Shown: piece by piece, positions 6,551-55,136 of the stretch
How positions within the stretch are numbered: the stretch's first letter is position 1
Layout of the letters: every line of letters starts with the position of its first letter
Assembly (NCBI GenBank): GCA_964016885.1
Contig: OZ024743.1
Location: 189,100,001-189,164,000, forward strand
DNA length: 64,000 bases
Source of the DNA: Eledone cirrhosa
Taxonomy: Eukaryota
Direction of reading: 5' to 3'
Position numbers and translations under genes: made by a program
Notes under the pieces: model-generated
Databases searched by the model: none
What the model was told of the DNA's origin: nothing
What the model saw: only the letters and a program-made list of their open reading frames with translations

Positions 6551-7580
6551 TCGTGAAACGAAATACGCCCGAAACGAATGCAATAGGCATTTCAATAAGA
6601 AATTAGAATAGATGAATGAGAAAAAACTACAAGAAAGGAAAATAGAATATTCTCAAAAATACCCAGGTAACATCAACAATATCCGTATGACTGATGTAAA
6701 ACTACCGGAAGAATTTACCTATGACCACACAGTAAATATTTATGGGAACACTTTAATCCGTGAACAAGAACAACAAATCCTGCAGCTACCACCAAAATTT
6801 GCCATCTACAAAACGATTAACCCTATTGAGTGCAAAACGGAGCTGGAAAAGTGCTTCACAAAAATACGTTGGAATGCAAAAGTAAACAACAACAACAATA
6901 ATAACGGTAGTAGTAATATAAACAATAACTCTGAGTATAGAAATAACAGCCATAACAATAACAATAGCAGGAGAGTGAGAAATAGTAATAATGGTAATAA
7001 TACTAACGATAGACAGAACAACAACAACAACCACAATAATAATAATAATAATAGAAACATTAACCACAGACACAGCAGCAGAGACCACAGTAGTAATAAC
7101 GGTAACAATACGAACAACAACAACAATAACCACAGTGGTAATAATGGAAATAATACATGTAGCAACATTAATGATAGACACAACAAAAACAAGAAACATA
7201 ACAAAAGTAACAACCACAATGGTAGAAATAACAGTAACAACAACAATAACGGTGAAGTAAACAACAATACATCTAGCAATCATAACAATAATAATAATGC
7301 TAATGATAGGAACAACAACAACCACCAATATAACAATAATAGCAACACACACAACTATGACGATAGATATAATGACAATCCCTTGGAGAAACTATTTTTC
7401 AACCCAGCTGACAAAACATATAAGATGGGTAATATCTATTTTACGAGGTTACCCTTTAATAAAAGAGTTTGCTTACCACAACAAATAGATGACGAGACAG
7501 AGGCACAGTTCACCATAGCTAGAAATAAGATTAGACAAATAGTAGACCGGTATACTAAGAGACAGAGCAGACCAGAGGCC

Positions 7581-9731
7581 TGTAGCAGGAGTTGCCTCCC
7601 TTGTTGTGACACTCACATCCCCAATAGATTAACGCTCTCTAGACAGGATGTAGAACCTTTCTGTAACTTCCGGTCAGAACCCTACAAAGCTAACAACTTT
7701 AAGTTCTCTCTCTCTCATTCAACTTTCCGGCGCCTGGCCTCTCATTCGCCCATTTCGGTCAGGCGCCTCCTGGCTTTCGCCAGGAGTCATGTGTCAGGCG
7801 TGTGTAACCCTGGCAACCAAGCGGTAACTAATAACTTTGTTTCATTCTCTCATCTATTCATTGACATGTCAACTATACTGTTCTATATATCCACAAATTG
7901 TTAATTAAATATTATACACACAAACCACGTCTCCTTGTTACATTCATACACACCAGTAATTTGTTATAAGTGGTGACCCCGACGTGATACGAACACGCAG
8001 CCGTTCATTGTTATAAGTTGTGACCCCGAAAAAAGAAAAAATAGCAGAATCTGGTGTTGTGTGAGTAACATTACGAATACACAGCAACATTTTATTGACA
8101 AACTATGAAAATACGCAACCAAGAAACGAACACACCACGCACATGTGAAATTCGCGTTCAGACAGACTTTTTCTCTCACGCATCAACTAACTGTCGCATT
8201 TCACGATATATATATATATATGTTTCTCGTTTCTTACAACGAACACTTTAAAAACAAAAAAAAACAAAAAATTAGATTTTTTTTTAAAAAACATTACAAC
8301 AGGAACATTTATTTTCGATGAACCTCAACCATTGCCTTTTTTTCATCGTTTTCTTCATCGTTCAAGTTTTTTTTCAAAGTTCACACAAAAAATAAAAGAA
8401 AAACAAATTGAACTCGCCATATTTGTTATGCTAAGTGAAGCCTTTCTTTCTTTTTTATCATTATCACTTTCACACACACATTTTGTCCAAAATGGCTGCC
8501 AACGACCTGTTGCATTATCATTTTCGCGCCATTTTCTCGCGCATTAGAAATAACTTTTTATCAACTTAACCATGTTTTGGCACGTGTAGGATTCTCGATT
8601 CACGGAGATATTTCGACTCACAGAGATAGCCGTACGCCAGGGATAAGGTTTCTCGCCAAGGATTCTCCAGCCTTAAGCTATATTCTCCTATTTGCCGGTT
8701 TAAAAATTTACCACGTAAATTTGCCGTTGAAAACTGCGCATTTATTCAGAATGCTTATTTCTTTGGTCGCTGGCCTCTTGCCCCTTCCAGGTCAACGCAT
8801 TCTCAACATCGACCATCAACTTCGGCTGTTATTTCTAGCACTTTGCGCAACTCATTTTTTCTGAAAAAAATTTTTTTACTGTGAATTTAAACATCGGATA
8901 CGCTCACTCTGCGAGACAACAACATCAACAGCAACACAGCTTCATCAACAACCAAAACCAGCAGAACAAGCCAGAGAATTTATTTTTGCAGCACTCTTCC
9001 TGTGAGAAAATCCATTCGGAGGTTGGAAATTTCACAATATACCACAGAACAGAAACCACCTGCATTCATTCTCTGGAACACACTTTCTTTCCTGCTGTCA
9101 TGTGATTGCACACCTGTGAACTATATTTTGTATATTTGAACTTTGAGCTCTTTTCTAACTTTATTACATTGTATCTTTGGGTGATGGATAGATAGATGTC
9201 CAGTCGTTCTCTGGCCAAGAGCGGTTGGCTACCTTGATGTCTATCATTGATTTTTGCAAACATTATTTTATTTATTTTTATTTTTTTCGTAATTTTCATG
9301 CCTGTTACAACATTCTCGCCAACTTGTTACATACATATTTCATTCGATTTTTATATTTTAAAAATCTGGCGGAAAGTAATGTAGCAGGAGTTGCCTCCCT
9401 TGTTGTGACACTCACATCCCCAATAGTTTAACGCTCTCTAGAAGGAAGTAGAACCCTTTCTGTAACTTCCGGTCAGAACCCTATAAAACTAACAACTTTA
9501 AGTTCTCTCTCTCTCATTCAACTTTCCGGCGCCTGGCCTCTCATTCGCCTTTTCGGTCAGGCGCGAGTAACCCTGGCAATCAAACGGTTACTAATAACTT
9601 TGCTTCATTCTTTCATCTATTCATTGACATGTCAACTATACTGTTCTATATATCCACAAATTGTTAATTAAATATTATACACACAAACCACGTCTCCTTG
9701 TTACATTTATACACACTAGTATTTCGCATTA
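7581..9731 (+). mobile_element. Non-autonomous LTR retroelement (Gypsy-like), LTRs 7581-7968 and 9380-9731
   Basis: Direct repeats starting TGTAGCAGGAG. The 5' LTR ends TGTTATA (decayed TGCTACA). GGCC target duplication at 7577-7580 and 9732-9735. Purine-rich GGCGGAAAGTAA precedes the 3' LTR. No convincing ORF in the 1.4-kb interior. Confidence 0.9.
7971..7988 (+). promoter_or_regulatory. Primer-binding site for tRNA-Trp
   Basis: TGGTGACCCCGACGTGAT, 2 nt after the 5' LTR; 18-nt complement of the eukaryotic tRNA-Trp 3' end. Confidence 0.92.
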
Positions 9732-12142
9732 GGCCCAACAACTTGGGAGGAAACCTGTAGAAGGCTCGGTTAGCCTCAAGAAGCGCACAAGGGATGGTGA
9801 GGTAGTATGTCTACCCACGGATAAGTCTGGTAGGATGTCAATAGATAGCATGCCGAACAACATCAAGGCTATGCAACCCCACATCACCAACACGAGCGAA
9901 ATTGCACAGCAAACACATGATGGGAGAGAGAAAATCTTCAACGCTCACATGATGATGTGGACTGACAACCTAAAGCCAAGCAGACGCACTGCCAACAACT
10001 TCCAGGCGTCTAACAATGGCATACCACCCATGTATGGGCTCCGCAAAGACCACAAGACAGTCGACGACCCGACAACAGGACCACCAACAATACCCGTATG
10101 CGGAGCTAATATAGCTAGCAACTACATTATCTCCTACTTCCTCTCAATGGTTATACGTCCCATAATCAAGATGTCCCCAGATGTATGTGACAGTACAGAG
10201 GACCTCCTCAGCAGAATCAGTGAGTGCAACAAAAACAGGAACCTATCCAACTGTATAATAGGCAGCATGGATGTGGTATCACTGTACCCATCCATTAACA
10301 TTGATTTTGCTTGGAAAAATATGTGGAGTTGATCATTTAGAGTGAGGTGGAGATCTGCAACGTCGACACAGACGAACTGGGCCTCCTACTTAGACTAACT
10401 ACGACACTGACTACCTAGACAGCCATGACCTTAGACGTTTCTGCCCTAGTAGACCCATAAGAGGTAGAACCCCCACCATAACCTCAATGGCAAAAAAGAC
10501 TCCCATGGAAAGGTGGATTGGATGGACCAAAGCTATACGGACCCCCCAAAACAATGATCAGGTAAGAAAAATGGTCGCACATGCACTAGGGGCTAGTATC
10601 AAAACTACCCTCAAGGGCCACATATTCAAGTTCAACGAGAAGATCTACACCCAAAATGAGGGAGCAGCCATTGGCGTCAGCATAGCTGGTGATGTTGCCA
10701 ACCTTTTCATGGTATGGTGGGAAAGGAGACTTAAAGATCTCCTTAATGAGAGCTCCATAGACCACATCATGTACTCTCGTTACGTAGACGATATCAATAT
10801 AGTTATAAGAACATCCCCACTAGAGAGCACTAACAAGTTTGATTTAGAACGTAGCACAATGGAAAGCATCCAGCAGATGACTAATTCCATACACCAGAGA
10901 ATAACTGTAACTATCGACTTCCCTTCCAAACACCCTAACAATAGACTACCTGTATTAGACACAGAACTCTGGATTAACACTATAGACGAGAGAGCCCAAA
11001 TTCTCCACTCACACTATGCTAAACCCATGGCCTCCAAATACCTGATACTTAAAAACTCAGCAATGTCCAGTAGTGCTAAGTTTAATATTCTGATCGCAGA
11101 TTTGGTACGAGTGATGAAGAATGTGTCCCGCATGTGCGACCCAAGAGAAATGGAAAGACACATCCAACACTTCATCAACCGCATGCAGTTCTCTGGCTAC
11201 AACCAAAGAGACAGGGTCAAAGTATACGAAGGAGCCATGGAGAAGTATAAGACCATCATAGAACTGGACATGCAAGGAATTTGCCCATTATACAGGAGCA
11301 AATCATGGAATAGCTTAGATAGGGCTAGACATAAGATAGGGAAAGCCACCTCATGGTGCGACAACCAGAGATACCAGAGTGTCATGTTTGTGGACGCTAC
11401 CCCTGAAGGGAAATTAGCTAACCAGTGTAGAAAGGCCCTGAGAAAGACCCACTTAAAAATTAAGGTGGTAGAAAAGCCAGGAACAACCAACCCTTTTAAG
11501 AAAACCCACTGTACCAATAGGAAATGTATCATATGTAAGGTAAACACCCGGATAAACTGTAAAACTAGAAACGTAGTCTATAGTATAAGATGTACAGAGG
11601 GTACTTGCAGAAACATGACAACAACATACATAGGTGAGACAGCTCGTAGCATAGGTGAAAGGATTGACCAACACTGGGGGGAACTAAAAGGACGAAAAAA
11701 CTGGTCAGTACTATACGAACATGCTAGACAACAACATGACGGTAACATAGACAACATAGAAATTAGAATAATATCTAAACATAGAAATGACCCAGCAGAT
11801 AGGCAAATCAGAGAGGCCAGTGAAATAGAAATTAGAAGGCCAAGACTAAACAGAAAGAATGAATGGTATAACAACAACATCCAAACAAACAACACTGACC
11901 TAAGAGAAGTATAAATAAGTAAATAAAATAAAATAAATAAATAAATAAATAAATACATACACAAGCACATAAACACACACTAATCACCCATCACACAGCA
12001 AACAAAACACTATACACACACGCAAACGCATGCGCAAAGAAGACAAAATAAAATAAACAAACAAGCAAATAAATAAATAAATATATAGACAGACTGAATA
12101 AAAATGGCGTAGACATACAATACAACAGGAGGAAACAATAAC

Positions 12143-12184
12143 ACCACTGACGATGTTGCAGATGTGCAACGAAAGATTTATGAT
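12143..12184 (+). ncRNA. Minimal type I HHR in the family B PLE 3' UTR
   Basis: CTGACGA-T-GTTGCA(GATG)TGCAAC-GAAA-GATT-TA; stem I imperfect (ACCA/TGAT). Minus-strand copies at ~29346-29387 and ~32889-32930 have A9C. Confidence 0.7.
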
Positions 12185-12403
12185 AAACTATATATATGTG
12201 TTTGTGTCTATATTGTATCTGTATTATTTTTGACCGTCGGTCAGTCAATGGCAACATTGAGGACCGAGTAAGTTAGATTACCGATATAAAAGACATAGAA
12301 GCGAGAAGCGAAAACCAACCAAACAGTGAGTGTGTTCTATTATTAATTCTGGCAATATTACACAAATATGACCCTCCCCAAGTATAACAATAAATATATA
12401 TAT

Positions 12404-12695: not shown

Positions 12696-12733
<38 letters not shown>

Positions 12734-12734
<1 letters not shown>

Positions 12735-13248
12735 GTTAAAAGAATAGAGGTGTAACACACAAGTTATTATATATTGGTAAACGGAATAGAAAATGCTGAC
12801 AGATTGTTCACAGTTGAAAAATGGTTTAATTAGGAATAAAAGAGTATTAGTGATTGTATGGGTTAGTATTCAGTTGTGGTTTTAAGTTTTTAAGTTTTTA
12901 CCGGTTGCGCATTTCTAAATGCTTTTCAAAAATAATTTTGAGATAGAGTGTCCGTGCTGTTTGCTCTGATCTGATTAGTTTTGGGAATTCTACCTGTTTT
13001 TATGTTAAAAAAGTGGCTCCAGCGTTACTTTGGTGTTGCAAAATTTCTTGTGGTCAAAACAATTTTGATTGGTCGGTAGAGGTCATGTGAGTGTAAAAAA
13101 TTGATTTTGCGCCAAGACTGTTTTTATGTTAAAAAATTGGCTCCAGCAACAATTCTTGTGGTCAAAACAATTTTGATTGGTCGGTAGAGGTCATGTGAAT
13201 AAAAAATTGGTTTTGCGCCAAGCTTGAGAAATGACTCTTTCACAACAA

Positions 13249-13250
<2 letters not shown>
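12734..13250 (-). mobile_element. Non-coding repeat inserted in a TA tract (same family as 15226-15660)
   Basis: 12734-12972 nearly identical to 15226-15465. Internal motifs (aaaagtggctc, tttgattggt) are shared with 53529-55028. Confidence 0.75.
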
Positions 13251-13298
<48 letters not shown>

Positions 13299-13370
13299 TA
13301 GTAGTAGTAGTAAGGTGTTCGATGTTGTGATAATGGTTAGCAGCGATGTGTGTCAAATGGCTATTGAGAT

Positions 13371-13451
<81 letters not shown>

Positions 13452-13813
13452 GCAGAGTAATTCGTGGTGGCAGGGATGGTCAGTAAGAATGTGTCTGAAA
13501 GCAATGGGAGGTATTTTAGCATGTCAAAATATATTTTTCAGCTTTTGTCTTATACGGAGAAGTGCGTGTGTGTGTGTGTATATAAGTCTCTTTGTATGTT
13601 GATGTACGCGTGTGTATGTGTGTATGTATATATGTGTGTGGGGGGCGGGGACCAGTATTTTTTCCCCCTGGTAAAATGGTGTACATTATTCGATTTTTTC
13701 AGTAAAATCAGTTCTCTTAATAGAACATCAAAAATCTTAACAATAAAAGGTGTGAAATGATATTCACTATATATATATACACACATACATATTATATATA
13801 TATATAAATACAC

Positions 13814-13864
<51 letters not shown>

Positions 13865-13907: not shown

Positions 13908-14905
13908 ATCATCATCATCATCATCATCATCACCGTTTTACGTCCGTTCTTCCACGCTAGCATGGGTTAGACGGGTTGTCCTGTTGTGGGCAGTGTCTGG
14001 TCGGCTGACCATGCCTTGCTCATACAGGAACTGATCTGGCTTGATTTCTACAGCTGGATGCCCTTCCTAACACCAACCTCATTTACAGTGAGTGCTGGGT
14101 GCTTTTTCGTGGCGCCTACACGTCCACTTTACAATGTGGGCTGGGTGCTTTTTTGCCGTGGCACCTCCACGACCACCTTGCGGTGGGGGGGGGGGCATAT
14201 TGTTTATATGCTTCAGCATGTACCCATGGGAGGTCGGGTACCCTGTATTACTGCGTGACGCCAGAAGTCACGGTCGTGTGTCATTGACTTTGAGAGGTGT
14301 AGTTGGGTAAGGTCGGCTTTTATCACCTCATCCCAAGTCATCTTGGGTCTCCCCACTCCGCGGTTTCCATCAACTTCTAGTGCTCTGCACCTTTTTATGC
14401 AGCTGTCATCCTTCATACGCATCACATGTCCATACCAGCGTAACCGCCTCTCCTGCACGCAGCATTTGATTCCTCTTATGCTCAGTCTCTCTCTCAATTC
14501 CTTTATGCTTTGTCGTTCACGTATATTACTGTTACACGTCCATCGGAGCATGCAGGCTTCGTTTCTCTCTAATCTACGTAAGTCTTCCACCTTCAGCGCC
14601 CAGGTCTCACTACCATGCAACATCGCTGTTCGGATACACGCATCATACAGTCTGCCTTTCATTCTGAGGGAGAAGCCTTTTGCAGCTAGCAGTGGTAGTA
14701 GTTCCCTAAACTTCTTCCATCCCGTTCTTACCCTAGTTATTGTACTTTCTGAGCACCCACCTCCGTTGCTAATTCGGTCACCCAGGTAGCAGAAGCTGTC
14801 TACTGTTTCTACAGGGCCCTCCCAGAGATTGGTGGTACTTGTTTCCTGTGGCTGTTTGCTTGCTGTTTCAGCACAGCTGCTGCATGTGAATCCTACATTC
14901 TTAAT
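13908..14905 (-). mobile_element. RTE-clade LINE 3' end
   Basis: ORF 14213-14662 KGRLYDACIRTAMLHGSETW...RRLRWYGHVMR...RGVGRPKMTW is a typical RTE C-terminus. (GAT)n tail seen as (CAT)n at 13908-13931. Confidence 0.9.
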
Positions 14906-14942
14906 TAAGCTTCCTGAGATCCCGCTACATCTCTTGTGTAGT

Positions 14943-15000
<58 letters not shown>

Positions 15001-15034
15001 TATATATATAAATATATATATATAAATATATATA

Positions 15035-15120
<86 letters not shown>

Positions 15121-15154: not shown

Positions 15155-15222
<68 letters not shown>

Positions 15223-15225
15223 TAT

Positions 15226-15656
15226 AGTTAAAAGAATAGAGGTGTAACACACAAGTTATTATATATTGGTAAACGGAATAGAAAATGCTGACAAATTGTT
15301 CACAGTTGAAAAATGGTTTAATTAGGAATAAAAGAGTATTAGTGATTGTATGGGTTAGTATTCAGTTGTGGTTTTAAGTTCTTAAGTTTTTACCGGTTGC
15401 GCATTTCTAAATGCTTTTCAAAAATAATTTCGAGATAGAGTGTCCGTGGTGTTTGCTCTGATCTGAGCAAACAGCACGGACACTCTATCTCAAAATTATT
15501 TTTGAAAAGCATTTAGAAATGCGCAACCGGTAAAAACTTAAAAACTTAAAACCACAACTGAATACCAACCCATACAATCACTAATACTCTTTTATTCCTA
15601 ATTAAACCATTTTTCAACTGTGAACAATTTGTCAGCATTTTCTATTCCGTTTACCA

Positions 15657-15660
<4 letters not shown>
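15226..15660. mobile_element. Fold-back (palindromic) element with unequal arms
   Basis: 15262-15458 is the reverse complement of 15465-15660; the left arm has ~35 extra nt; TA tracts on both sides. Confidence 0.85.
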
Positions 15661-15740
<80 letters not shown>

Positions 15741-16046
15741 GGGCACAAAACTTTAATGAAAATTTGTTCACGTGACAGCCATAATTTCATTTATAACCAA
15801 CCAAAAAAGCATTCGTGAACCTCCTTTTTTCAAGTAAAAAGAAATTCAAATACTCATATATGAAAAAACAACCTGTGACAACTATTGTAACGCGAACTGG
15901 CGCGAAATTTATTATAATTATTGACAAACCAATCAAATTACTTCTCGAAAAACCTGGCATTTCGAGCCACTTTATCCATATAAAACAAGTAACATTCAGA
16001 GACCAACCAGATGTGAGAAAAACCACAGACCCTCCATCTCAACTCA

Positions 16047-16084
16047 CCTTTTGAAAAGCAGAAGAACTGCGAAACCGGTAAAGG
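16047..16084 (+). ncRNA. Type I HHR variant with U3-A8 core
   Basis: CCTT-TTGAAAA-GCAG(AAGAA)CTGC-GAAA-CCGG-TA-AAGG. Other copies: 32070-32107(-), 32179-32216(+), 35614-35651(-), 35723-35760(+), 52687-52724(-), 52795-52832(+), 53603-53640(-, mutated), 54853-54890(+). Confidence 0.75.
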
Positions 16085-16563
16085 AACCAAATAAATATAT
16101 ATATTTTTTTAAAAAATAATACTCCAGTTGCATTTTCGATTTCATCTCTTTTTCTGTCTCTCTCTCTCTCTTTCTCTCCCCCTCTCTCTCTCTATATATA
16201 TATATAAATATATATATATATAAATATATAGATATATATTCAAAAAACAAACAGCGAAGGACGCGTTCCGCACTTGTCCGACAGACAACCTTTTCCCCCA
16301 CCCCGGAAAAACCCCCAGTTGATGGATGTGAATCCGAAATATATAGGGACTATTAAATTTCTCCCAAGGTAACTCTCTCTTGTGTTGTTATTTTTATTTC
16401 ATCCTTTATACTCTTCCCTTCATTCTACACATCTCACACATCTTATACACACCACGCATCTCAACGTACACCCACTTACATCTCTCTCTCCACCACCGGA
16501 CCTTGTTACCCGGAGATTTACCTATTTGCATTGTCGAGGCTTCCAAACGACTTAAAGATATAT

Positions 16564-19304: not shown

Positions 19305-22295
19305 GAGCCGCCAGTGTCCGCGCATTGCCTGGAGACTTAACTGAGAATAGACTTCCTGATGACGCAATGAATTCTCGACAGTTGGATTACGTAACTGTCT
19401 TTATCCCATTGCAGAAACTAATTAGTTGGAGTGAAAATTTAAGTAAGAAAAGAATTTTTTTTTTAAATTTTTTTTAAAAAAATATTTTCTTATTTTACGT
19501 CCTTTATATTATTGTTCTGCATTCTCCTGCATTGAACCACCTAGGTACTATGACATAACCTGTGTATTTGCTGGCATGGGCGTGCATCTGTGCGCTTATG
19601 TTAGTTGATATATTAAATTATCTATATTTATCTCCAAATCACTGATTTGTCGAGCAAACTTGTCAAAACCACTTCTAAAAAAATTTTTTTTGGGGTGTTA
19701 GTAGGCGTCAGTCATCTTACCATCCCATTCCTTCTAACTAGCCTCTGTGTCACGTGATTGATTCTTTAGAATCGGCCATTTGACTTGAAGCAGTGAGAAT
19801 TTCGGTACATAGAATCCAGTCCTCGCAAGCTGTTCGATCTACCGAATTATTATTATTTTTATATGAGCCGCCAGTGTCCGCGCATTGCCTGGAGACTTAA
19901 CTGAGAATAGACTTCCTGATGACGCAATGAATTCTCGACAGTTGGATTACGTAACTGTCTTTATCCCATTGCAGAAACTAATTAGTTGGAGTGAAAATTT
20001 AAGTAAGAAAAGAATTTTTTTTTAAATTTTTTTAAAAAAATATTTTCTTATTTTACGTCCTTTATATTATTGTTCTGCATTCTCCTGCATTGAACCACCT
20101 AGGTACTATGACATAACCTGTGTATTTGCTGGCATGGGCGTGCATCTGTGCGCTTATGTTAGTTGATATATTAAATTATCTATATTTATCTCCAAATCAC
20201 TGATTTGTCGAGCAAACTTGTCAAAACCACTTCTAAAAAAATTTTTTTTTGGGGTGTTAGTAGGCGTCAGTCATCTTACCATCCCATTCCTTCTAACTAG
20301 CCTCTGTGTCACGTGATTGATTCTTTAGAATCGGCCATTTGACTTGAAGCAGTGAGAATTTCGGTACATAGAATCCAGTCCTCGCAAGCTGTTCGATCTA
20401 CCGAATTATTATTATTTTTATATGAGCCGCCAGTGTCCGCGCATTGCCTGGAGACTTAACTGAGAATAGACTTCCTGATGACGCAATGAATTCTCGACAG
20501 TTGGATTACGTAACTGTCTTTATCCCATTGCAGAAACTAATTAGTTGGAGTGAAAATTTAAGTAAGAAAATAATTTTTTTTTAAATTTTTTTAAAAAAAT
20601 ATTTTCTTATTTTACGTCCTTTATATTATTGTTCTGCATTCTCCTGCATTGAACCACCTAGGTACTATGACATAACCTGTGTATTTGCTGGCATGGGCGT
20701 GCATCTGTGCGCTTATGTTAGTTGATATATTAAATTATCTATATTTATCTCCAAATCACTGATTTGTCGAGCAAACTTGTCAAAACCACTTCTAAAAAAA
20801 TTTTTTTTTGGGGTGTTAGTAGGCGTCAGTCATCTTACCATCCCATTCCTTCTAACTAGCCTCTGTGTCACGTGATTGATTCTTTAGAATCGGCCATTTG
20901 ACTTGAAGCAGTGAGAATTTCGGTACATAGAATCCAGTCCTCGCAAGCTGTTCGATCTACCGAATTATTATTATTTTTATATGAGCCGCCAGTGTCCGCG
21001 CATTGCCTGGAGACTTAACTGAGAATAGACTTCCTGATGACGCAATGAATTCTCGACAGTTGGATTACGTAACTGTCTTTATCCCATTGCAGAAACTAAT
21101 TAGTTGGAGTGAAAATTTAAGTAAGAAAAGAATTTTTTTTTAAATTTTTTAAAAAAAATATTTTCTTATTTTACGTCCTTTATATTATTGTTCTGCATTC
21201 TCCTGCATTGAACCACCTAGGTACTATGACATAACCTGTGTATTTGCTGGCATGGGCGTGCATCTGTGCGCTTATGTTAGTTGATATATTAAATTATCTA
21301 TATTTATCTCCAAATCACTGATTTGTCGAGCAAACTTGTCAAAACCACTTCTAAAAAAATTTTTTTTTGGGGTGTTAGTAGGCGTCAGTCATCTTACCAT
21401 CCCATTCCTTCTAACTAGCCTCTGTGTCACGTGATTGATTCTTTAGAATCGGCCATTTGACTTGAAGCAGTGAGAATTTCGGTACATAGAATCCAGTCCT
21501 CGCAAGCTGTTCGATCTACCGAATTATTATTATTTTTATATGAGCCGCCAGTGTCCGCGCATTGCCTGGAGACTTAACTGAGAATAGACTTCCTGATGAC
21601 GCAATGAATTCTCGACAGTTGGATTACGTAACTGTCTTTATCCCATTGCAGAAACTAATTAGTTGGAGTGAAAATTTAAGTAAGAAAAGAATTTTTTTTT
21701 AAATTTTTTTTAAAAAATATTTTCTTATTTTACGTCCTTTATATTATTGTTCTGCATTCTCCTGCATTGAACCACCTAGGTACTATGACATAACCTGTGT
21801 ATTTGCTGGCATGGGCGTGCATCTGTGCGCTTATGTTAGTTGATATATTAAATTATCTATATTTATCTCCAAATCACTGATTTGTCGAGCTAACTTGTCA
21901 AAACCACTTCTAAAAAAATTTTTTTTTGGGGTGTTAGTAGGCGTCAGTCATCTTACCATCCCATTCCTTCTAACTAGCCTCTGTGTCACGTGATTGATTC
22001 TTTAGAATCGGCCATTTGACTTGAAGCAGTGAGAATTTCGGTACATAGAATCCAGTCCTCGCAAGCTGTTCGATCTACCGAATTATTATTATTTTTATAT
22101 GAGCCGCCAGTGTCCGCGCATTGCCTGGAGACTTAACTGAGAATAGACTTCCTGATGACGCAATGAATTCTCGACAGTTGGATTACGTAACTGTCTTTAT
22201 CCCATTGCAGAAACTAATTAGTTGGAGTGAAAATTTAAGTAAGAAAAGAATTTTTTTTTTAATTTTTTTAAAAAAATATTTTCTTATTTTACGTC

Positions 22296-22300
<5 letters not shown>
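19303..22300 (+). repeat. Tandem array of near-identical 559-bp units (5 full + partial), retrozyme-like
   Basis: atgagccgccagtgtccg at 19303, 19863, 20422, 20981, 21540 and 22099; ends in a TA tract. Confidence 0.96.
19351..19432 (+). ncRNA. Type I HHR, one per 559-bp unit (also 19911, 20470, 21029, 21588, 22147)
   Basis: ACTTC-CTGATGA-C-GCAATG..GACAGTT(GGATTACGT)AACTGTC..CATTGC-A-GAAA-CTAATTAG-TT-GGAGT. Palindromic stem III, GUU triplet. Confidence 0.82.
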
Positions 22301-22333
<33 letters not shown>

Positions 22334-22709
22334 GAAGAATGATAAAATTTCAAGCAAAGAGTTTAATTAGGTATATTTTGTAATATTATTAACTAATTAT
22401 TATAATTAACGCGCATATTTTGCTATCCTCAAACACGTTTACACATGGCATGAAATATAACTAATCCGAGATGGCTAGGTTTCATCTTCTAACTGGATAA
22501 ACGAAATCCATTATGTCTTGACAACAACATGAGGTAACATTATGTTATTCACAGACACACTTTGTACACTGTTCCATATCAGAATGTATTTCCTTCGTCA
22601 CATTCACAAACAGTATTGAAAATATGTTCTTCGGCAAATAAAAATGTTTTGTTCATAATATTTCAACTAGCGATTGCTCTACTTCACGCACGACCACCAT
22701 AAATTAATG

Positions 22710-28018: not shown

Positions 28019-28805
28019 AATACAATATCGGAGAAAGCTTTTTAGCGATATTCCGGCCAAATTCCAACTCACTCAACAAACATTAGGAAATAAGTGATTA
28101 TATTCCCAATTATGTGTTCGGGGTGCTAACTAAAAGTATTGCGTGGAAAATTGGCTGTATTATTTCAAATGAGACATATCTAATATATCTCTTCCCAGAC
28201 GGACGTCTCGTTTCATTATAGGACTCCTACAATTTGGGTGAAATTATACTAATTTATGTAGCAGCTTGTATACCATTAATAGATATATATTCAAGTGGGC
28301 TCCTATAATTCATCAGTGGGTGCCCCAATAATACTAATATTGATAATCTAACCAACATCAGCATTTAGCGATAATCACTTTCTGTGCCTGAGGTATCTGT
28401 CAGGTAGCCAGTCCAGCAGTTCTGAAAGAAGTGCTCGAACTGATTCAAAAAATGAGGAAGTGAATTACCGCCAAAAAAAATAATACATGTACGTAACAAT
28501 GAACTCTGAAAGGAATTCAGGCCACATGCTAAGAACTCAATTGGAAATTGAAAAAATATCCATGTGTGTACAACATTTGATGATACACAGATATTTTCTC
28601 GGGCAAAATAACAGAATGATATATAAGCAACAATCAATATTCATATATAAAAAAATAAACAAAGAAATGCTAACCTTATACCTGGAATTTTTTTCAAATC
28701 TGCTGCGACAAGAATAAGTAAATAAATACAATATCGGAGAAAGCTTTTTAGCGATACTCCGGCCAAATTCCCAGTCACTCAACACTTTGTAAAAAAAAAC
28801 CTCAC

Positions 28806-28836
<31 letters not shown>

Positions 28837-28846
28837 AATATATATG

Positions 28847-28942
<96 letters not shown>

Positions 28943-28947
28943 AATAT

Positions 28948-28984
<37 letters not shown>

Positions 28985-28994
28985 TTAAATATAT

Positions 28995-29027
<33 letters not shown>

Positions 29028-29034
29028 AATATAC

Positions 29035-29083
<49 letters not shown>

Positions 29084-29092
29084 TATATATAA

Positions 29093-30364
29093 ATAGTTTT
29101 CCGAGGTTTTTTATATGAAATCGTGTGTCGAAACAAATATTGTTATACTTGGGGAGGGTCATATTTGTGTAATATTGCCAGAATTAATAACAGAACACAG
29201 TCACTGTTTGGTGGGTTTTCGCTTTTCGCTTCTGTGTCTTTTATATCGGTAATCTAATTTATTCGGTCCTCAATGTTGCCATTGACTGACCGGCGGTCAA
29301 AAATAATACAGATACAATATAGACACAAACACATACATATAGTTTATCAGAGTTCTTTCGTTGCACATCTGCAACAGCGTCAGTGGTGCTACTGTTTCCT
29401 CCCGTTGCATTGTATGACTACACCATTTTTATTTAGTCTGTCTATATATTTATTTATTTGTTTGTTCATTTTATTTGTTTGTTTGTTCATTTTATTTTTA
29501 TTTTTCTCTTCTTTGCGCATGCGTTAGCGTGTGTGTTTAGTGTTTTGTTTAATGTGTGTTCGTGATTGGGTGACTAGTGTGTGTTTATATGTGTTTGTTG
29601 TTATTGTGCTTGTGTATCTATATATTTATTTATTTATCTATTTATTTATTTATTTATACTTCTCTTAGTTCAGTGTTCTTTGTTAGGGTGTTGTTGTTAT
29701 TCCATTCATTCTTTCTGTTTAGTCTTGGCCTTCTAAGTTCTATTTCACTGGCCTCTCTGATTTGCCTATCTGCTGGGTCATTTCTATGTTTAGATATTAT
29801 TCTAATTTCTATGTTGTATATGTTACCGTCGTGTTGTTGTCTGGCATGTTTGTATAGTACTGACCCGTTTTTTCGTCCTTTTAGTTCCCCCAGTGTTGGT
29901 CTATCCTTTCACCTATGCTACGAGCTGTCTCGCCTATGTATGTTGTAGTCATGTTTCTGCAAGTACCCTCTGTACCTCTGATACTATAGACTACGTTTCT
30001 AGTTTTACAGTTTATACGGGGGTTTACCTTACATATGATACATTTCCTATTAGTACAGTGGATTTTCTTAAAAGGGTAGGTTTTGCTGATCAGGGATTTT
30101 ATAGTGGTTCCTGGCTTTTCTACCACCTTAATTTTTAAGTGGGTCTTTCTCAGGCCCTTTCTACACTGGTTAGCTAATTTCCCTCCAGGGGTAGCGTCCA
30201 CAAACATGACACTCTGGTATCTCTGGTTGTCGTACCATGAGGTGGCTTTCCCTAACTTATGTCTAGCCCTATCTAAGCTATTCCATGATTTGCTCCTGTA
30301 TAATGGGCAAATTCCTTTCATGTTTCAGTTCTATGAGTGTCTTATACTTCTCCATGGCTCCTTC

Positions 30365-30367
<3 letters not shown>
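29093..30367 (-). mobile_element. PLE family B 3' fragment with tail (frameshifted copy)
   Basis: ORF 29881-30321 matches the C-terminus of 10487-11914. Confidence 0.9.
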
Positions 30368-30401
<34 letters not shown>

Positions 30402-30832
30402 TATATATTTTGAGTTTATGTTGGTTGTATACCAACACCTCAGTATGCAGGCTGGAGCACTCGACGAAGTGCGCAGGTTGGTTTGGTTACTCCGGAGTAG
30501 TGTAAAATAAAGTTAAATAAAAGTCAAATGATTAAAATTTAGCTTCGTTTATTACTGCTATATATATTTCAGTGACAGCCATCTTTGGCTGTGACCTCTC
30601 ATATGACTCCTGTTCCCCAGTGAATTAACAACCCAGCAAGGAACTGGGCATATCAGAGTATTGACAATATCATACACCTAAACAACATATGTACTTGTCT
30701 ATACCATACTAATTCAAACTGCCTGAAGAGGTCACAGCCAAAGATGGCTGTCACTGAAATATATATAGCAGTAATAAACGAAGCTAAATTTTAATCATTT
30801 GACTTTTATTTAACTTTATTTTATAAATATAT

Positions 30833-30867
<35 letters not shown>

Positions 30868-30874
30868 AATATAT

Positions 30875-31246
<372 letters not shown>

Positions 31247-31271
31247 CGTATATATATATATTTATAAATAT

Positions 31272-31304
<33 letters not shown>

Positions 31305-31307
31305 AAT

Positions 31308-31342
<35 letters not shown>

Positions 31343-31361
31343 AATATATATATATATAAAT

Positions 31362-31394
<33 letters not shown>

Positions 31395-31422
31395 AATATA
31401 TATATATATAAATATATATATA

Positions 31423-31915
31423 CTAGCATTAAAGCCCGGCGTTGATCGGGGTCATTAAGTTACCAAAGTTAGGTTGCACCACCCATTTTACGGCAGCACT
31501 TTTTTGTCTGCCAGGCACTGGGTGAATGAATTTCAGACCAGGAAGCAGAAGCTGCGCCAGCAGTGACAATTGTATTTTCGCCTATGGATATTATCTCTGT
31601 ACAAAAAAGTTTGAAATTTATTGTTTCACAGTACTTGCGCAACACGCGTGTAGACGATGCCAGCCGAACAACAGAGCTGCGATGGAGTTGTTCTGCATGG
31701 TTGTCTGTGTTTTCTAAATTTAAGACAGTAGGTAGGGTTGTGATATGGCGGAGAGTTAGCTGTTGTTTCTAGCAGGTTTAGTGACCTCATAGAGGATATG
31801 TGTTTTCTAAATTTAAGACAGTAGGGAGTGGTGTGATAGGGGGGAGAGTTAGCTGCTGTTACTAGCAGGTTTAGTGACCTCATAGAAGATATGTTTTCTA
31901 AATTTAAGACAGTAA
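31423..31915 (-). mobile_element. Non-autonomous Helitron-like element (copy 34967-35460)
   Basis: Minus-strand end: CCCG..CGGG hairpin then CTAG|T; internal ~85-bp tandem repeats; 5' TC end not identified. Confidence 0.55.
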
Positions 31916-31996
31916 TAAATATATATATATATATATATAAATATATATAAATATATATATATATATATAAATATATATAAATATATATATATATAT

Positions 31997-32348
31997 AAAG
32001 AAAAAGAGATGAAATCGAAAATGCAACTGAAGTCTTATTTTTTTTAAAAATATATATATTTATTTGGTTCCTTTACCGGTTTCGCAGTTCTTCTGCTTTT
32101 CAAAAGGTGAGTTGAGATGGAGGGTCTGTGGTTTTTCTCACAGTGAGAGAAAAACCACAGACCCTCCATCTCAACTCACCTTTTGAAAAGCAGAAGAACT
32201 GCGAAACCGGTAAAGGAACCAAATAAATATATATATTTTTAAAAAAAATAAGACTTCAGTTGCATTTTCGATTTCATCTCTTTTTCTTTATACTTCCACT
32301 CGTGTAGGACACCTCGGTTATTTTTCATTTTGTAAAAAAAAACCTCAC

Positions 32349-32355
<7 letters not shown>
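31997..32355. mobile_element. Fold-back element with U3-A8 HHRs (also 35541-35898, 52613-52969)
   Basis: Palindrome centred ~32143; the right arm extends ~65 nt to ...cctcactttcta; TA flanks. Confidence 0.88.
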
Positions 32356-32379
<24 letters not shown>

Positions 32380-32389
32380 AATATATATG

Positions 32390-32485
<96 letters not shown>

Positions 32486-32490
32486 AATAT

Positions 32491-32527
<37 letters not shown>

Positions 32528-32537
32528 TTAAATATAT

Positions 32538-32570
<33 letters not shown>

Positions 32571-32577
32571 AATATAC

Positions 32578-32626
<49 letters not shown>

Positions 32627-32635
32627 TATATATAA

Positions 32636-33908
32636 ATAGTTTTCCGAGGTTTTTTATATGAAATCGTGTGTCGAAACAAATATTGTTATACTTGGGGAGG
32701 GTCATATTTGTGTAATATTGCCAGAATTAATAACAGAACACAGTCACTGTTTGGTGGGTTTTCGCTTTTCGCTTCTGTGTCTTTTATATCGGTAATCTAA
32801 TTTATTCGGTCCTCAATGTTGCCATTGACTGACCGGCGGTCAAAAATAATACAGATACAATATAGACACAAACACATACATATAGTTTATCAGAGTTCTT
32901 TCGTTGCACATCTGCAACAGCGTCAGTGGTGCTACTGTTTCCTCCCGTTGCATTGTATGACTACACCATTTTTATTTAGTCTGTCTATATATTTATTTAT
33001 TTGTTTGTTCATTTTATTTGTTTGTTTGTTCATTTTATTTTTATTTTTCTCTTCTTTGCGCATGCGTTAGCGTGTGTGTTTAGTGTTTTGTTTAATGTGT
33101 GTTCGTGATTGGGTGACTAGTGTGTGTTTATATGTGTTTGTTGTTATTGTGCTTGTGTATCTATATATTTATTTATTTATCTATTTATTTATTTATTTAT
33201 ACTTCTCTTAGTTCAGTGTTCTTTGTTAGGGTGTTGTTGTTATTCCATTCATTCTTTCTGTTTAGTCTTGGCCTTCTAAGTTCTATTTCACTGGCCTCTC
33301 TGATTTGCCTATCTGCTGGGTCATTTCTATGTTTAGATATTATTCTAATTTCTATGTTGTATATGTTACCGTCGTGTTGTTGTCTGGCATGTTTGTATAG
33401 TACTGACCCGTTTTTTCGTCCTTTTAGTTCCCCCCAGTGTTGGTCTATCCTTTCACCTATGCTACGAGCTGTCTCGCCTATGTATGTTGTAGTCATGTTT
33501 CTGCAAGTACCCTCTGTACCTCTGATACTATAGACTACGTTTCTAGTTTTACAGTTTATACGGGGGTTTACCTTACATATGATACATTTCCTATTAGTAC
33601 AGTGGATTTTCTTAAAAGGGTAGGTTTTGCTGATCAGGGATTTTATAGTGGTTCCTGGCTTTTCTACCACCTTAATTTTTAAGTGGGTCTTTCTCAGGCC
33701 CTTTCTACACTGGTTAGCTAATTTCCCTCCAGGGGTAGCGTCCACAAACATGACACTCTGGTATCTCTGGTTGTCGTACCATGAGGTGGCTTTCCCTAAC
33801 TTATGTCTAGCCCTATCTAAGCTATTCCATGATTTGCTCCTGTATAATGGGCAAATTCCTTTCATGTTTCAGTTCTATGAGTGTCTTATACTTCTCCATG
33901 GCTCCTTC

Positions 33909-33911
<3 letters not shown>
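32636..33911 (-). mobile_element. PLE family B 3' fragment with intact GIY-YIG frame
   Basis: ORF 33197-33865: CTNRKCIICK...NVVYSIR...YIGETARSIGERIDQH...RQIREA. Confidence 0.9.
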
Positions 33912-33945
<34 letters not shown>

Positions 33946-34376
33946 TATATATTTTGAGTTTATGTTGGTTGTATACCAACACCTCAGTATGCAGGCTGGA
34001 GCACTCGACGAAGTGCGCAGGTTGGTTTGGTTACTCCGGAGTAGTGTAAAATAAAGTTAAATAAAAGTCAAATGATTAAAATTTAGCTTCGTTTATTACT
34101 GCTATATATATTTCAGTGACAGCCATCTTTGGCTGTGACCTCTCATATGACTCCTGTTCCCCAGTGAATTAACAACCCAGCAAGGAACTGGGCATATCAG
34201 AGTATTGACAATATCATACACCTAAACAACATATGTACTTGTCTATACCATACTAATTCAAACTGCCTGAAGAGGTCACAGCCAAAGATGGCTGTCACTG
34301 AAATATATATAGCAGTAATAAACGAAGCTAAATTTTAATCATTTGACTTTTATTTAACTTTATTTTATAAATATAT

Positions 34377-34411
<35 letters not shown>

Positions 34412-34669
34412 AATATATATTTGCCTAGTTACACCCTCTGGATATTTAGCTCCTTTATTTGCCTAGTTACACCCTCTGGATATTTAGCTCCTTTATTTGC
34501 CTAGTTACACCCTCTGGATATTTAGCTCCTTTATTTGCCTAGTTACACCCTCTGGATATTTAGCTCCTTTATTTGCCTAGTTACACCCTCTGCATATTTA
34601 GCTACTTCATTTGCCTAGTTACACCCTCTGGATATTTAGCTCCTTTATTTGCGTAGTTACACCCTCTGG

Positions 34670-34786
<117 letters not shown>

Positions 34787-34811
34787 CGTATATATATATA
34801 TTTATAAATAT

Positions 34812-34844
<33 letters not shown>

Positions 34845-34847
34845 AAT

Positions 34848-34882
<35 letters not shown>

Positions 34883-34901
34883 AATATATATATATATAAA
34901 T

Positions 34902-34934
<33 letters not shown>

Positions 34935-35892
34935 AATATATATATATATAAATATATATATATATACTAGCATTAAAGCCCGGCGTTGCTCGGGGTCATT
35001 AAGTTACCAAAGTTAGGTTGCACCACCCATTTTACGGCAGCACTTTTTTGTCTGCCAGGCACTGGGTGAATGAATTTCAGACCAGGAAGCAGAAGCTGCG
35101 CCAGCAGTGACAATTGTATTTTCGCCTATGGATATTATCTCTGTACAAAAAAGTTTGAAATTTATTGTTTCACAGTACTTGCGCAACACGCGTGTAGACG
35201 ATGCCAGCCGAACAACAGAGCTGCGATGGAGTTGTTCTGCATGGTTGTCTGTGTTTTCTAAATTTAAGACAGTAGGTAGGGTTGTGATATGGCGGAGAGT
35301 TAGCTGTTGTTTCTAGCAGGTTTAGTGACCTCATAGAGGATATGTGTTTTCTAAATTTAAGACAGTAGGGAGTGGTGTGATATGGGGGAGAGTTAGCTGC
35401 TGTTACTAGCAGGTTTAGTGACCTCATAGAAGATATGTTTTCTAAATTTAAGACAGTAATAAATATATATATATATATATATAAATATATATAAATATAT
35501 ATATATATATATAAATATATATAAATATATATATATATATAAAGAAAAAGAGATGAAATCGAAAATGCAACTGAAGTCTTATTTTTTTTAAAAATATATA
35601 TATTTATTTGGTTCCTTTACCGGTTTCGCAGTTCTTCTGCTTTTCAAAAGGTGAGTTGAGATGGAGGGTCTGTGGTTTTTCTCACAGTGAGAGAAAAACC
35701 ACAGACCCTCCATCTCAACTCACCTTTTGAAAAGCAGAAGAACTGCGAAACCGGTAAAGGAACCAAATAAATATATATATTTTTAAAAAAAATAAGACTT
35801 CAGTTGCATTTTCGATTTCATCTCTTTTTCTTTATACTTCCACTCGTGTAGGACACCTCGGTTATTTTTCATTTTGTAAAAAAAAACCTCAC

Positions 35893-35933
<41 letters not shown>

Positions 35934-36332: not shown

Positions 36333-37599
36333 TTTCGTTTCTGAATTTGTTTAGCAAGATTCTTTATCTGAAATCCTGTTTTGAAACCGATATTGTTATA
36401 CTTTGGGAGGGTCATGTTGCCAATAAGAAACACACGCACCAGTTGCTTTCACTTCAATTTATTATATATTTATAAATTTATAAATTTACAAATCTACAAA
36501 CTTATAAATTTCTGGTTGGTTGATTGGTTCCACAACCAGATAGTTGTTTATGTATAGTCATAGTCCTTTCGTCACACACTCTGTGACCTCTTCAGTGACT
36601 GGGGATTCCTTTCTTTGTTTCTGTGCCTTTCCTTTCTTCCATCCTACGCCATTTTGTTTCTGTGTGTGTGTTGTGTGCTCAATTTGCGCATGCGCCACAT
36701 CCGGGTGTCTGTGTGTGTTTGTGTTCATTTATCTATTTGTTTATTTATTTATTTATTTATTGTTGTTTGGTTGTTTGTTCTATGTGTGTGTGTGTTTTCA
36801 TTTTGTCCTGTGCGTGTTTTCATTTTGCCCTTAATTGTAAGTTGTTTGTTCTATGTGTGTGTTTGTGTGTTTTCATTTTGTCCTGTGTATGTTTTCATTT
36901 TGTCCTTAATTGTAAGTTGTGATGTTGCTGTTCCACTCATATTTTCTATTTAATTTTGGTTGTAATTCTTTTATGCTTACTGCCTCTGTAATTTGCCTAA
37001 ACATTGCATCTTTTCTGTGTGTGGATTCTATTTTTATTTCTATGTTCTCTAATCTACCCCTGTGTTCTATCCTAGCATGTTGGTAGAGCACAGATGATTC
37101 TTTATTATCTTGAAGGTCTCGCCAGTGTTCATTTATTCGTTCTCCTATACTACGAGCTGTCTCACCTATGTACACTATATTTTTGTTTCTACATTGTCCT
37201 TCAGTACATCTTATGCTATACACTACATTTCTAGTTTTACAGTTAATATGGGGGCTTATTTTACAGGTTATACATTTCTTATTTATACATGAGGGTCTTT
37301 GGAACGTGTATGTCTTGCTAATAAGTGTTTTTACGGAGGTACCTTGTCTTTCTACTATCTTAATATTGAGTTTATGTTTATTTAGGGCCCTTCTAAATTT
37401 GTAGGCTAGTTCGCCTCTAGGGGTTGTATTGATGAACATTACACTCTGGTATTTATTGCTATCATACCATGAGTTTATTCTATTGGCCTTGTTCCTAGTT
37501 CTTTCAATTCTATTCCACACTTTGCTCCTATACAAGGGGCAGGTCCCATTTATGTCATTATTTACCATTTTTTCCCATTTGGTTCTGGCTCCTCTATAC
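36333..37599 (-). mobile_element. Inverted 3' copy (pseudo-LTR-like) of PLE family A with tail
   Basis: Reverse complement of 40081-41212 plus ~50 extra nt; ORF 36906-37568; HHR at 36556-36600. Confidence 0.95.
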
Positions 37600-37633
37600 C
37601 AATAGATATCCCGACAAAATTGACGGTATCAAC

Positions 37634-40774: not shown

Positions 40775-41004
40775 GGACAAAATTAAAACACACACAGGAC
40801 AAAATGAAAACACACACACACATAGAACAAACAACCAACCAACAATAAATAAATAAATAAATAAGCAAATAGATAAATGAACACAAACACACACAGACAC
40901 CCGGATGTGGCGCATGCGCAAACTGAGCACACAACACACACACAGAAACAAAACGGCGTAGGATGGAAGAAAGGAAAGGCACAGAAACAAAGAAAGGAAT
41001 CCCC

Positions 41005-52513: not shown

Positions 52514-52614
<101 letters not shown>

Positions 52615-52963
52615 AAGAAAAAGGGATGAAATCGAAAATGCAACTGAAGTCTTATTTTTTTAAAAAATATATATATTTATTTGGTTCCTTTACCGGTTTC
52701 GCAGTTCTTCTGCTTTTCAAAAAGTGAGTTGAGATGGAGGGTCTGTGGTTTTTCTCAGATGTGAGAAAAACCACAGACCCTCCATCTCAACTCACCTTTT
52801 GAAAAGCAGAAGAACTGCGAAACCGGTAAAGGAACCAAATAAATATATATATTTTTAAAAAAAATAAGACTTCAGTTGCATTTTCGATTTCATCCCTTTT
52901 TCTTTATACTTCCACTCGTGTAGGACACCTCGGTTATTTTTCATTTTGTAAAAAAAACCTCAC

Positions 52964-53048
<85 letters not shown>

Positions 53049-53450: not shown

Positions 53451-53528
<78 letters not shown>

Positions 53529-53530
<2 letters not shown>

Positions 53531-55028
53531 AAGAAAAAGAGATGAAATCGAAAATGCAACTGGAGTCTGATTTAAAAAAAATATATATATATTTATTTGG
53601 TTCCTTTACCGGTTTCGCAGCTCTTCTGCTTTTCATAAGGTGAGTTGAGATGGAGGGTCTGTGGTTTTTCTCACATCTGGTTGGTCTCTGAATGTTACTT
53701 GTTTTATATGGAAAAAGTGGCTCGAAATGCCAGGTTTTTCGAGAAGTAATTTGATTGGTTTGTCAATAATTATAATAAATTTCGCGCCAGTTTGCGTTAC
53801 AATAGTTCTTCAAATAAGAGGGGGGGGGGTTGTCACAGGTTGTTTTTTTCATATATGAGTGTTTGAATTTATTTTTACTTGAACAAAGGGGCTCACGAAG
53901 GGTTTTTTTTGGTTGGTTATAAATGAAATTATGGCTGTCACGTGAACAAGTTTTCATTAAATTTACGTGCCCTTATTTGGAAATCCATTCTGTAGCCTTT
54001 TTAGAGAATTTTATGATAAGTGAATGATAATGGTTAAGAGAAAGGGATGGGAGAATTGATCTGGTTCAGTGAATATGGTTAGTTCGCTGGGGTATCAGAA
54101 TTCAGATTTTCTATTGAATAAAAAAAGTAAAGATATGTATGTTTATTTGTGTGTGTGTGTGTGTGTTGTGTGTGTGTGTGTTTGAATTTCTTTACTTAAA
54201 AAAGGTGGCTCATGATGGATTTTAAAAAAAAGGTGGCTCACGAAGGCTTTTTAAAAAAAAAGGCTTCGTGAGCCACCTTTTTTTAAAGTAAAGAAATTCA
54301 AACACACACACACACAACACACACACACACACACACAAGCACACAAATACACATACATATCTTTACTTTCTTTATTCAATAGAAAATCTGAATTCTGACA
54401 CCCCAGCGAACTAACCATATTCACTGAACCAGAACAATTCTCCCATCCCTTTCTCTTGACCATTATCATTCATTTATCATAAAATTCTCTAAAATGGCTA
54501 CAGAATGGATTTCCAAATAAGGGCACGTAAATTTAATGAAAACTTGTTCACGTGACAGCCATAATTTCATTTATAACCAACCCCAAAAAAGCCTTCGTGA
54601 GCCCCTTTTTTCAAGTAAAAAGAAATTCAAACAATCATATATAAAAAAACAACCTGTGACAACCCCCCCCCCCTCTTATTTGAAGAACTATTGTAACGCG
54701 AACTGGCGCGAAATTTATTATAATTATTGACAAACCAATCAAATTACTTCTCGAAAAACCTGGCATTTCGAGCCACTTTTTCCATATAAAACAAGTAACA
54801 TTCAGAGACCAACCAGATGTGAGAAAATCCACAGACCCTCCATCTCAACTCACCTTTTGAAAAGCAGAAGAGCTGCGAAACCGGTAAAGGAACCAAATAA
54901 ATATATATATATATTTTAAAAATAATAGTCCAGTTGCATTTTCGATTTCATCTCTAATTCTTTATACTTTCACTCGTGTAGGACACCTCGTTTATTTTTC
55001 AATTTGTAAAAAAAACCTCACTTTCTAA
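53529..55028. mobile_element. 1.5-kb fold-back element, long form of the U3-A8 HHR family (one-armed copy at 15737-16155)
   Basis: ~720-bp inverted arms centred ~54255; right arm has the ~65-nt tail; no credible ORF. Confidence 0.9.
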
Positions 55029-55033
55029 TATAT

Positions 55034-55136
<103 letters not shown>

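Follow-up and report, generated by a model that had tools for sequence, protein, structure and literature searches.

The window analysed here is a stretch of 64,000 nt from Eledone cirrhosa (contig OZ024743.1). Its GC content ranges from 12 to 49% in 2-kb bins, and (TA)n repeats and retroelement fragments are abundant. Motif parsing, a copy scan and folding placed a candidate minimal type I hammerhead at 16047..16084 on the + strand, which we assign to repeat family A. Stem I is formed by CCTT (16047-16050) and AAGG (16081-16084), and stem II by GCAG (16058-16061) and CTGC (16067-16070). The core reads TTGAAAA, with U3 at 16051 and A8 at 16056. G12-A13-A14 occupy 16071-16073, the ACCGGT palindrome occupies 16074-16079, and A17 is 16080. 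The predicted cut lies between 16080 and 16081. This parse agrees with an earlier note on the same DNA, which had placed both stems, GAAA and ACCGGT in the same way.

Both strands of the window were scanned with up to 12 mismatches, and exactly nine copies were found, as the earlier note had counted. Five are on the + strand (16047, 32179, 35723, 52795 and 54853) and four on the − strand (32070, 35614, 52687 and 53603). The two-strand scan also bore out the claim that eight of the nine read TTGAAAA and that 53603 reads ATGAAAA. The copy at 52687 has an altered stem I (CTTT). The core test covered positions 3-9, G12-A13-A14-A15.1, U16.1, H17 and a Watson-Crick pair between 3 and 8; UUGAAAA, GAAA, U and A17 were present in eight of the nine window copies. 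Judged from its core, stem II and palindrome, the sequence reads as the hammerhead-type motif with a U3-A8 swap that had been proposed.

All copies had been described as lying in fold-back elements. This holds for eight of the nine, which form four pairs, while the focal copy is solo. It belongs to a tailless, 5′-truncated copy of the 3′ end and pLTR of a family A Penelope-like element (PLE), located at 15735..16155 (+) by BLAST to locus L075 and abutting (TA)n upstream. The head-to-head pair at 31994..32361 consists of short truncated copies with hammerheads at 32070-32107 (−) and 32179-32216 (+), and a tail of about 70 bp (32292-32361) on the + arm only. The pair at 35538..35905 (hammerheads 35614-35651 − and 35723-35760 +) is its duplicate. 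These two pairs count as one event because they lie within a 3.5-kb duplication, with 99.65% identity over 3.4 kb. The pair at 52611..52976 has a different junction (hammerheads 52687-52724 − and 52795-52832 +), and the longer pair, the "1.5-kb form", spans 53527..55034 (hammerheads 53603-53640 −, with A3, and 54853-54890 +); both have a + arm tail. The tail is thus confined to one arm in all four window pairs. The near-identical tandem duplication (3,544 bp, within 28750-35900) also holds 38-bp arrays at 30760-31246 and 34304-34790.

Three further U3-A8 motifs, overlooked earlier, belong to a sister family with GCAA in place of GAAA (12929 −, 15421 − and 15502 +). This family B was found by similarity within the window. 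It is represented by a head-to-head pair at 15216..15665, whose U3-A8 cores carry A13C (U3 at 15421 − and 15502 +), and by a 5′-truncated 3′ UTR and pLTR at 12724..13857 (−) with an A13C hammerhead (U3 at 12929).

Other retroelements were annotated in the window. Another PLE occupies 36831-41100, with an open frame of 1,091 codons (37499-40774) and an inverted 3′ copy (36831-37599). A canonical CUGAAGA hammerhead candidate goes with this element, at 41010 (+), 36595 (−), 57968 (+) and 1929 (−). A broken PLE at 6612-12200 is 61% identical to it and has an Asn-rich N-terminus and a canonical CUGACGA candidate at 12147; a related EN fragment lies at 33197-33868 (−). Putative hammerhead-like matches with canonical cores (CUGAUGA, CUGAAGA, CUGACGA) were also seen in other repeats, at 27585, 59082 (+), 55360 (−), 25557, 30719, 34263 (+) and 52420 (+). 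At least five identical 559-bp tandem units fill 19677-22500, where no hammerhead core was found. Other retroelement fragments (LINE-like RT, AP-endonuclease-like frames, PLE RT and GIY-YIG-like pieces) lie at 45725-48564, 14213-15037 and 62363-63608.

The exact 28-mer core pattern had 11,790 matches in the 3.0-Gb genome and none with the reversed control, so the motif is not a chance occurrence. A 22-nt probe near the 3′ end of family A had 16,942 matches. The family A motif with a canonical C3-G8 core had no genome match. The canonical core combined with the same palindrome had two matches, against 140 in the control, and the kinship of these two to the present elements is only putative. Contigs from four sequencing runs, two of which gave one contig each, contained no core variant at a 3% share. 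An Rfam covariance-model scan with E up to 10 returned only hairpin and microRNA noise, and no hammerhead family, among the matches listed.

The parent element was searched for by extending 14 long copies upstream, which led to an RT-endonuclease (RT-EN) ORF ending about 1.0 kb upstream of the hammerhead. The parent unit measures 4,719 bp from hammerhead to hammerhead at L075, where an inverted 5′-truncated copy, a partial tandem and a full-length unit follow one another. Its order is ORF1, then RT, Cys linker and GIY-YIG, and ORF1 starts 200 nt downstream of U3. At L073 an uninterrupted RT-EN frame of 775 codons encodes a CX4CX2C linker and GIY-YIG. Pfam placed GIY-YIG of family A above the cutoff (E 7.7e-6) and RVT_1 below it (E 2.1e-5); RVT_1 was above the cutoff in family B. 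No Pfam family and no Atlas match was found for ORF1. Every window copy of family A maps to the last 150-690 bp of the parent unit, with or without the tail of about 70 bp. The window PLE frames at 37499-40774 and 10394-11914 were rejected as parents, given their 20-31% identity and canonical cores.

The organization of the element corresponds to EN+ PLEs. RT is followed by a C-terminal GIY-YIG domain, and pLTRs from partial tandems, an inverted 5′-truncated copy, a one-sided tail and a pLTR hammerhead are all present at L075 and in the window pairs. PLEs are described as having partial tandems, inverted copies alongside and a tail on one side only (PMC8557442, PMC3846280). As in Neptune-type elements (PMC8557442, PMC3846280), the linker fits CX2-5CxxC (CX4CX2C by eye in the translations of families A, B and C), the GIY-YIG domain has two Cys and two His (CCHH), and the flanks are (TA)n or simple repeats. 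By its linker, EN residues and targets the element may be called Neptune-like. Neptune-type elements have one ORF and a 30-40 bp tail, whereas here ORF1 and RT-EN are separate, overlapping ORFs and the tail is about 70 bp. The Anolis Poseidon element PAc (PMC11167929) shares the pLTR hammerhead, two 3′ ends that define a tail and an uncut main template; its canonical C3-G8 core overlaps the start codon, unlike the arrangement here.

Families A, B and C each have an overlap of 67-88 nt between ORF1 and the RT-EN ORF, in the −1 frame. The overlap contains a conserved UUUUUUA in phase (U-UUU-UUA) in all three, near 4930 (−) in L073, near 1887 in L121 and near 4880 (−) in L180. UUUUUUA is a standard −1 slippery heptamer, and a frameshifted ORF1 is known for EN-minus Athena. 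The RT ORF has no Met before the conserved RT sequence, although the ORF1 C-termini diverge among the three families. RT is likely produced by programmed −1 frameshifting at UUUUUUA in these families. A search for a frameshift stimulator at the overlap found weak hairpins only and no H-type pseudoknot, and no longer fused ORF1-RT form was seen among 218 candidates, which is weak evidence. The Fig. 1 legend of PMC8557442 indicates that PLE ORF1 can be frameshifted, with no clade named in the text covered here. A text search of the literature found no description of a −1 overlap of ORF1 and RT at UUUUUUA in EN+ elements.

The earlier note had proposed a family with 360-bp and 1.5-kb fold-back forms. 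The copies are better described as truncated inverted insertions of the 4.7-kb PLE, with a continuum of lengths and differing junctions. Among the loci examined, the spacers of 32 inverted pairs of family A (<2.5 kb) ranged from 41 to 2,093 bp, the junctions differed, and the two arms of a pair carried the same subfamily marker, point changes aside. Fold-backs thus likely arise anew with each insertion, and the 360-bp size recurs because the 5′ ends of copies pile up. Replication of the 360-bp fold-backs as a unit, as a non-autonomous MITE-like or retrozyme-like family, is largely refuted and very improbable. Spacers do cluster, at 78-99 bp in family A (13 of the 32 pairs) and 80-86 bp in family B (4 of 10), as a replicating unit would predict. 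However, a self-replicating fold-back should have a fixed length and junction, whereas the lengths are continuous to 2 kb and the junctions vary from pair to pair; the arms agree in marker in both subfamilies, and solo copies share the same end point. Retrozymes are non-coding direct tandems with type I hammerheads and palindromic helix III in their repeats. The type I topology and the palindromic helix III are shared with them, but the copies here map to a coding PLE, are inverted or solo, and place the motifs of close pairs on opposite strands. For the same reason, one fold-back transcript cannot join its two motifs as a double hammerhead; it would carry a single sense motif, buried in a long duplex.

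Sister families were used to examine conservation. Looser patterns gave 237 matches (control 0), mostly mutated copies of families A and B, and a pattern with other stems II gave 3,543 (control 3). These searches yielded families C to G (L178, L180, L147-L196, L130, L131, L167-L173), with other stems II, A, U or C at N7, and ACCGGT in every case. Full RT-EN ORFs with 55-58% protein identity could be linked to families A, B and C; families E and F have RT fragments nearby at one locus each, and D and G have no tied ORF. Hammerhead identity among A, B and C is 0.83, 0.62 and 0.70, against 0.42-0.55 in the flanks (0.44-0.56 when shuffled), with an exception of 0.66 just upstream between A and B. 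Between sister families the core is a conserved island (hammerhead identity 62-83%) while most flanks are at shuffle level.

A hand-chosen alignment of 21 motifs showed 90.5% pairing in stem II, with double-sided changes at three of the four pairs; slid-partner controls paired at 31-40%. Stem I was paired at 75% only. N7 was A, U or C, and N17 was never G in the 21 motifs. Invariance of the core in this alignment is circular because the search patterns fixed much of it, and the apparent covariation of 3-8 rests on two canonical rows that are only putatively relatives. Inside the young family A, variability of the core (0-3.6%) was not clearly lower than that of the flanks (0-11%), and the outer pair of stem I was broken in about half of the copies (first 100 matches listed in both cases). 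Selection on the hammerhead fold is supported at the sequence level, since sister families at 55-58% identity keep the core and covary in stem II.

Family B had 6,271 genome matches, and 98 of the first 100 listed carry A13C, so its core departs from the consensus at A13. Its hammerhead otherwise covaries and keeps U3-A8 (also L116-L124), and its copies are nearly identical, which suggests recent activity. A fixed A13C was not found in any hammerhead family in the literature searched. Changes at A13 are cited in PMC4075628 as 10-100-fold inhibitory, and the parts of PMC2837043 and PMC3907566 covered here give only sporadic changes near A13. It can be argued that efficient cleavage is dispensable, because family B was amplified with A13C.

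Folding predictions point to a dimer. The monomer cannot form helix III because its loop has only 2 nt. The minimum-energy fold of the dimer is −20.3 kcal/mol, against −12.8 for two monomers, and contains both stems II, an intermolecular ACCGGU helix and swapped stems I, which is the skeleton of a double hammerhead. The 38-mer itself folds weakly (z = −0.94), and folding of a 121-nt stretch around it favours a competing pairing between the core and stem II regions. Published minimal hammerheads (min-HHRs) are described as inactive when monomeric and weakly active when dimeric (PMC4209133), and the Anolis PLE hammerhead requires the protein of its own element (PMC11167929). We expect that cleavage would be slow and dependent on dimerization and protein.

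The closest known systems include the Cercyon min-HHRs of Schistosoma mansoni (Cervera and De la Pena 2014, PMC4209133), where about 1,300 U3-A8 minimal hammerheads were reported through homology to the Cercyon PLE. The supplement of that paper gives the UUGAAAAA core in a full element, and opposite-strand hammerhead pairs 100-700 bp apart are also described there for PLEs. Thus neither a U3-A8 hammerhead in the pLTR of a PLE nor the opposite-strand arrangement is new. Like those min-HHRs, the present motif is type I, lies in a pLTR, and has a short stem I, G10.1-C11.1, a U3-A8 core and a palindromic helix III implying a dimer; most copies are truncated, and opposite-strand pairs occur. Unlike them, it lacks the extra nucleotide between 9 and 10.1, G10.1 following A9 directly, and has a 2-nt palindromic loop 3 (ACCGGU) and a 4-bp stem II. 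That nucleotide is typical rather than obligatory and is missing from some rows of Fig. S3 in PMC4209133. Further differences are its great abundance and uniformity (11,790 exact matches), a Cys linker in the host element and an A13C sister family. Natural hammerheads with the same compensatory swap (C3U/G8A) have been described, with in vitro activity cited (Perreault et al. 2011, PMC3088659). Their activity cannot be transferred to the present motif because this is a minimal motif of the dimer type, in which no loop-loop contact can be recognised.

The 5′ ends of copies were used as a record of the RNA template. Hand counting covered the 100 matches to the 3′ probe that were listed first; all lie on contig C1, and the sample is biased to young copies. 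In this sample, 50 of 100 copies had their 5′ end at −45 to −31 from U3, and at least 18 of these 50 ends lay directly against simple-repeat DNA. Palindromes at the junctions shift apparent ends by a few bases. In the window, this end site corresponds to 16006..16020 (+), CAGATGTG, with loose contig ends at 16008-16012. Family B ends at the same CAGAT motif, at the same position relative to its hammerhead, with 9 of 29 ends at −45 to −36. Judging from copy ends, either the RNA likely begins at this site or RT stops strongly there. Because the copies include the whole hammerhead, their templates were probably for the most part uncut. The literature search found no earlier description of copy ends piling up about 40 nt upstream of a PLE hammerhead.

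A second, weaker excess lies near the predicted cut. Three of the 100 sampled copies (first 100 matches listed) start at the first base past it. Genome-wide, 175 copies have their start within +28 to +30, as against 55 within +22 to +24, and 23 and 6, respectively, of 30 inspected per class were true truncations. The estimated true ends are about 134 and 11, a ratio of about 12 in which pattern capture and length were unequal. A hand count of the first 100 listed of 305 matches put 59 starts at +28 to +30, 16 at +31, 11 at +32 and 14 at +33. End density stays similar through +33 and further downstream, which makes a step rather than a sharp peak. Family B, taken as an inactive control, gave 96 matches, about 45 of them repeat-number variants (hand count, with no upstream control). 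This excess is only suggestive of an in vivo footprint of cutting; the step could also come from microhomology to (TA)n or from RT that stalls at stem I.

Very probably, a high-copy PLE carries the motif in its pLTR as a minimal type I hammerhead, which is predicted to cut slowly and only when dimeric, and the mirror-image pairs likely arose as by-products when the element inserted. On its sequence, it is a real, selected U3-A8 minimal hammerhead of a Neptune-like PLE, a known kind of which this is a so far undescribed member. The RNA would likely start about 43 nt upstream of U3, and the element protein would nick (TA)n DNA. By analogy with the Anolis PLE, and judging from copy ends, reverse transcription would be primed internally at two positions, one on each side of the tail. 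Where priming took place close to the RNA 5′ end, run-off copies of 150-220 nt would result, and joining of a second inverted copy head to head would give the 360-bp pairs; the 1.5-kb pairs and still larger ones would come from longer truncations. For cutting after A17, two RNA molecules would have to be held together through ACCGGU, probably with protein help, and perhaps a minority of templates is concerned. In the Anolis PLE, unprocessed RNA is the main substrate (PMC11167929).

We speculate that the same element may instead keep the motif as an RNA structure or a protein-binding site whose cutting is no longer meaningful, which is possible though rather unlikely. The A13C fixed in family B, at a position where changes are cited as strongly inhibitory (PMC4075628), would fit such a role, and so would the intact motif in most short copies and the finding that hammerhead mutants had no effect on Anolis PLE insertion in vitro (PMC11167929). 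However, N17 avoids G in all 21 motifs while N7 is free, as catalysis requires, and the roughly 12-fold step in ends past the predicted cut also speaks for cutting. A chance likeness to a hammerhead in an A/T-rich repeat end is hardly credible. The weak 38-mer fold and the Rfam result among the matches listed would agree with it, but the motif has the position expected in a PLE pLTR, the conserved island and stem II covariation extend across families, and the pattern with other stems II gave 3,543 matches against 3 in its control.

The motif as first reported adds little, given that U3-A8 hammerheads of PLEs and inverted pairs had already been published. PMC8557442 calls the function of hammerheads in PLEs unclear, and PMC11167929, which tested a single element, detected no ends cut in vivo. 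More tentatively still, the insertion ends may form a fossil record, in which most RNAs started about 43 nt upstream and stayed uncut, a minority were cut after A17, and an A13C sister spread to more than 6,000 copies. Such a natural experiment would show U3-A8 dimer cutting in vivo without transposition depending on it, in PLEs that make their RT by −1 frameshift. This genome contains several families with more than 20,000 related motifs between them, and one family has a fixed core change; the role of the PLE hammerhead thereby becomes testable from copy ends and a few assays.
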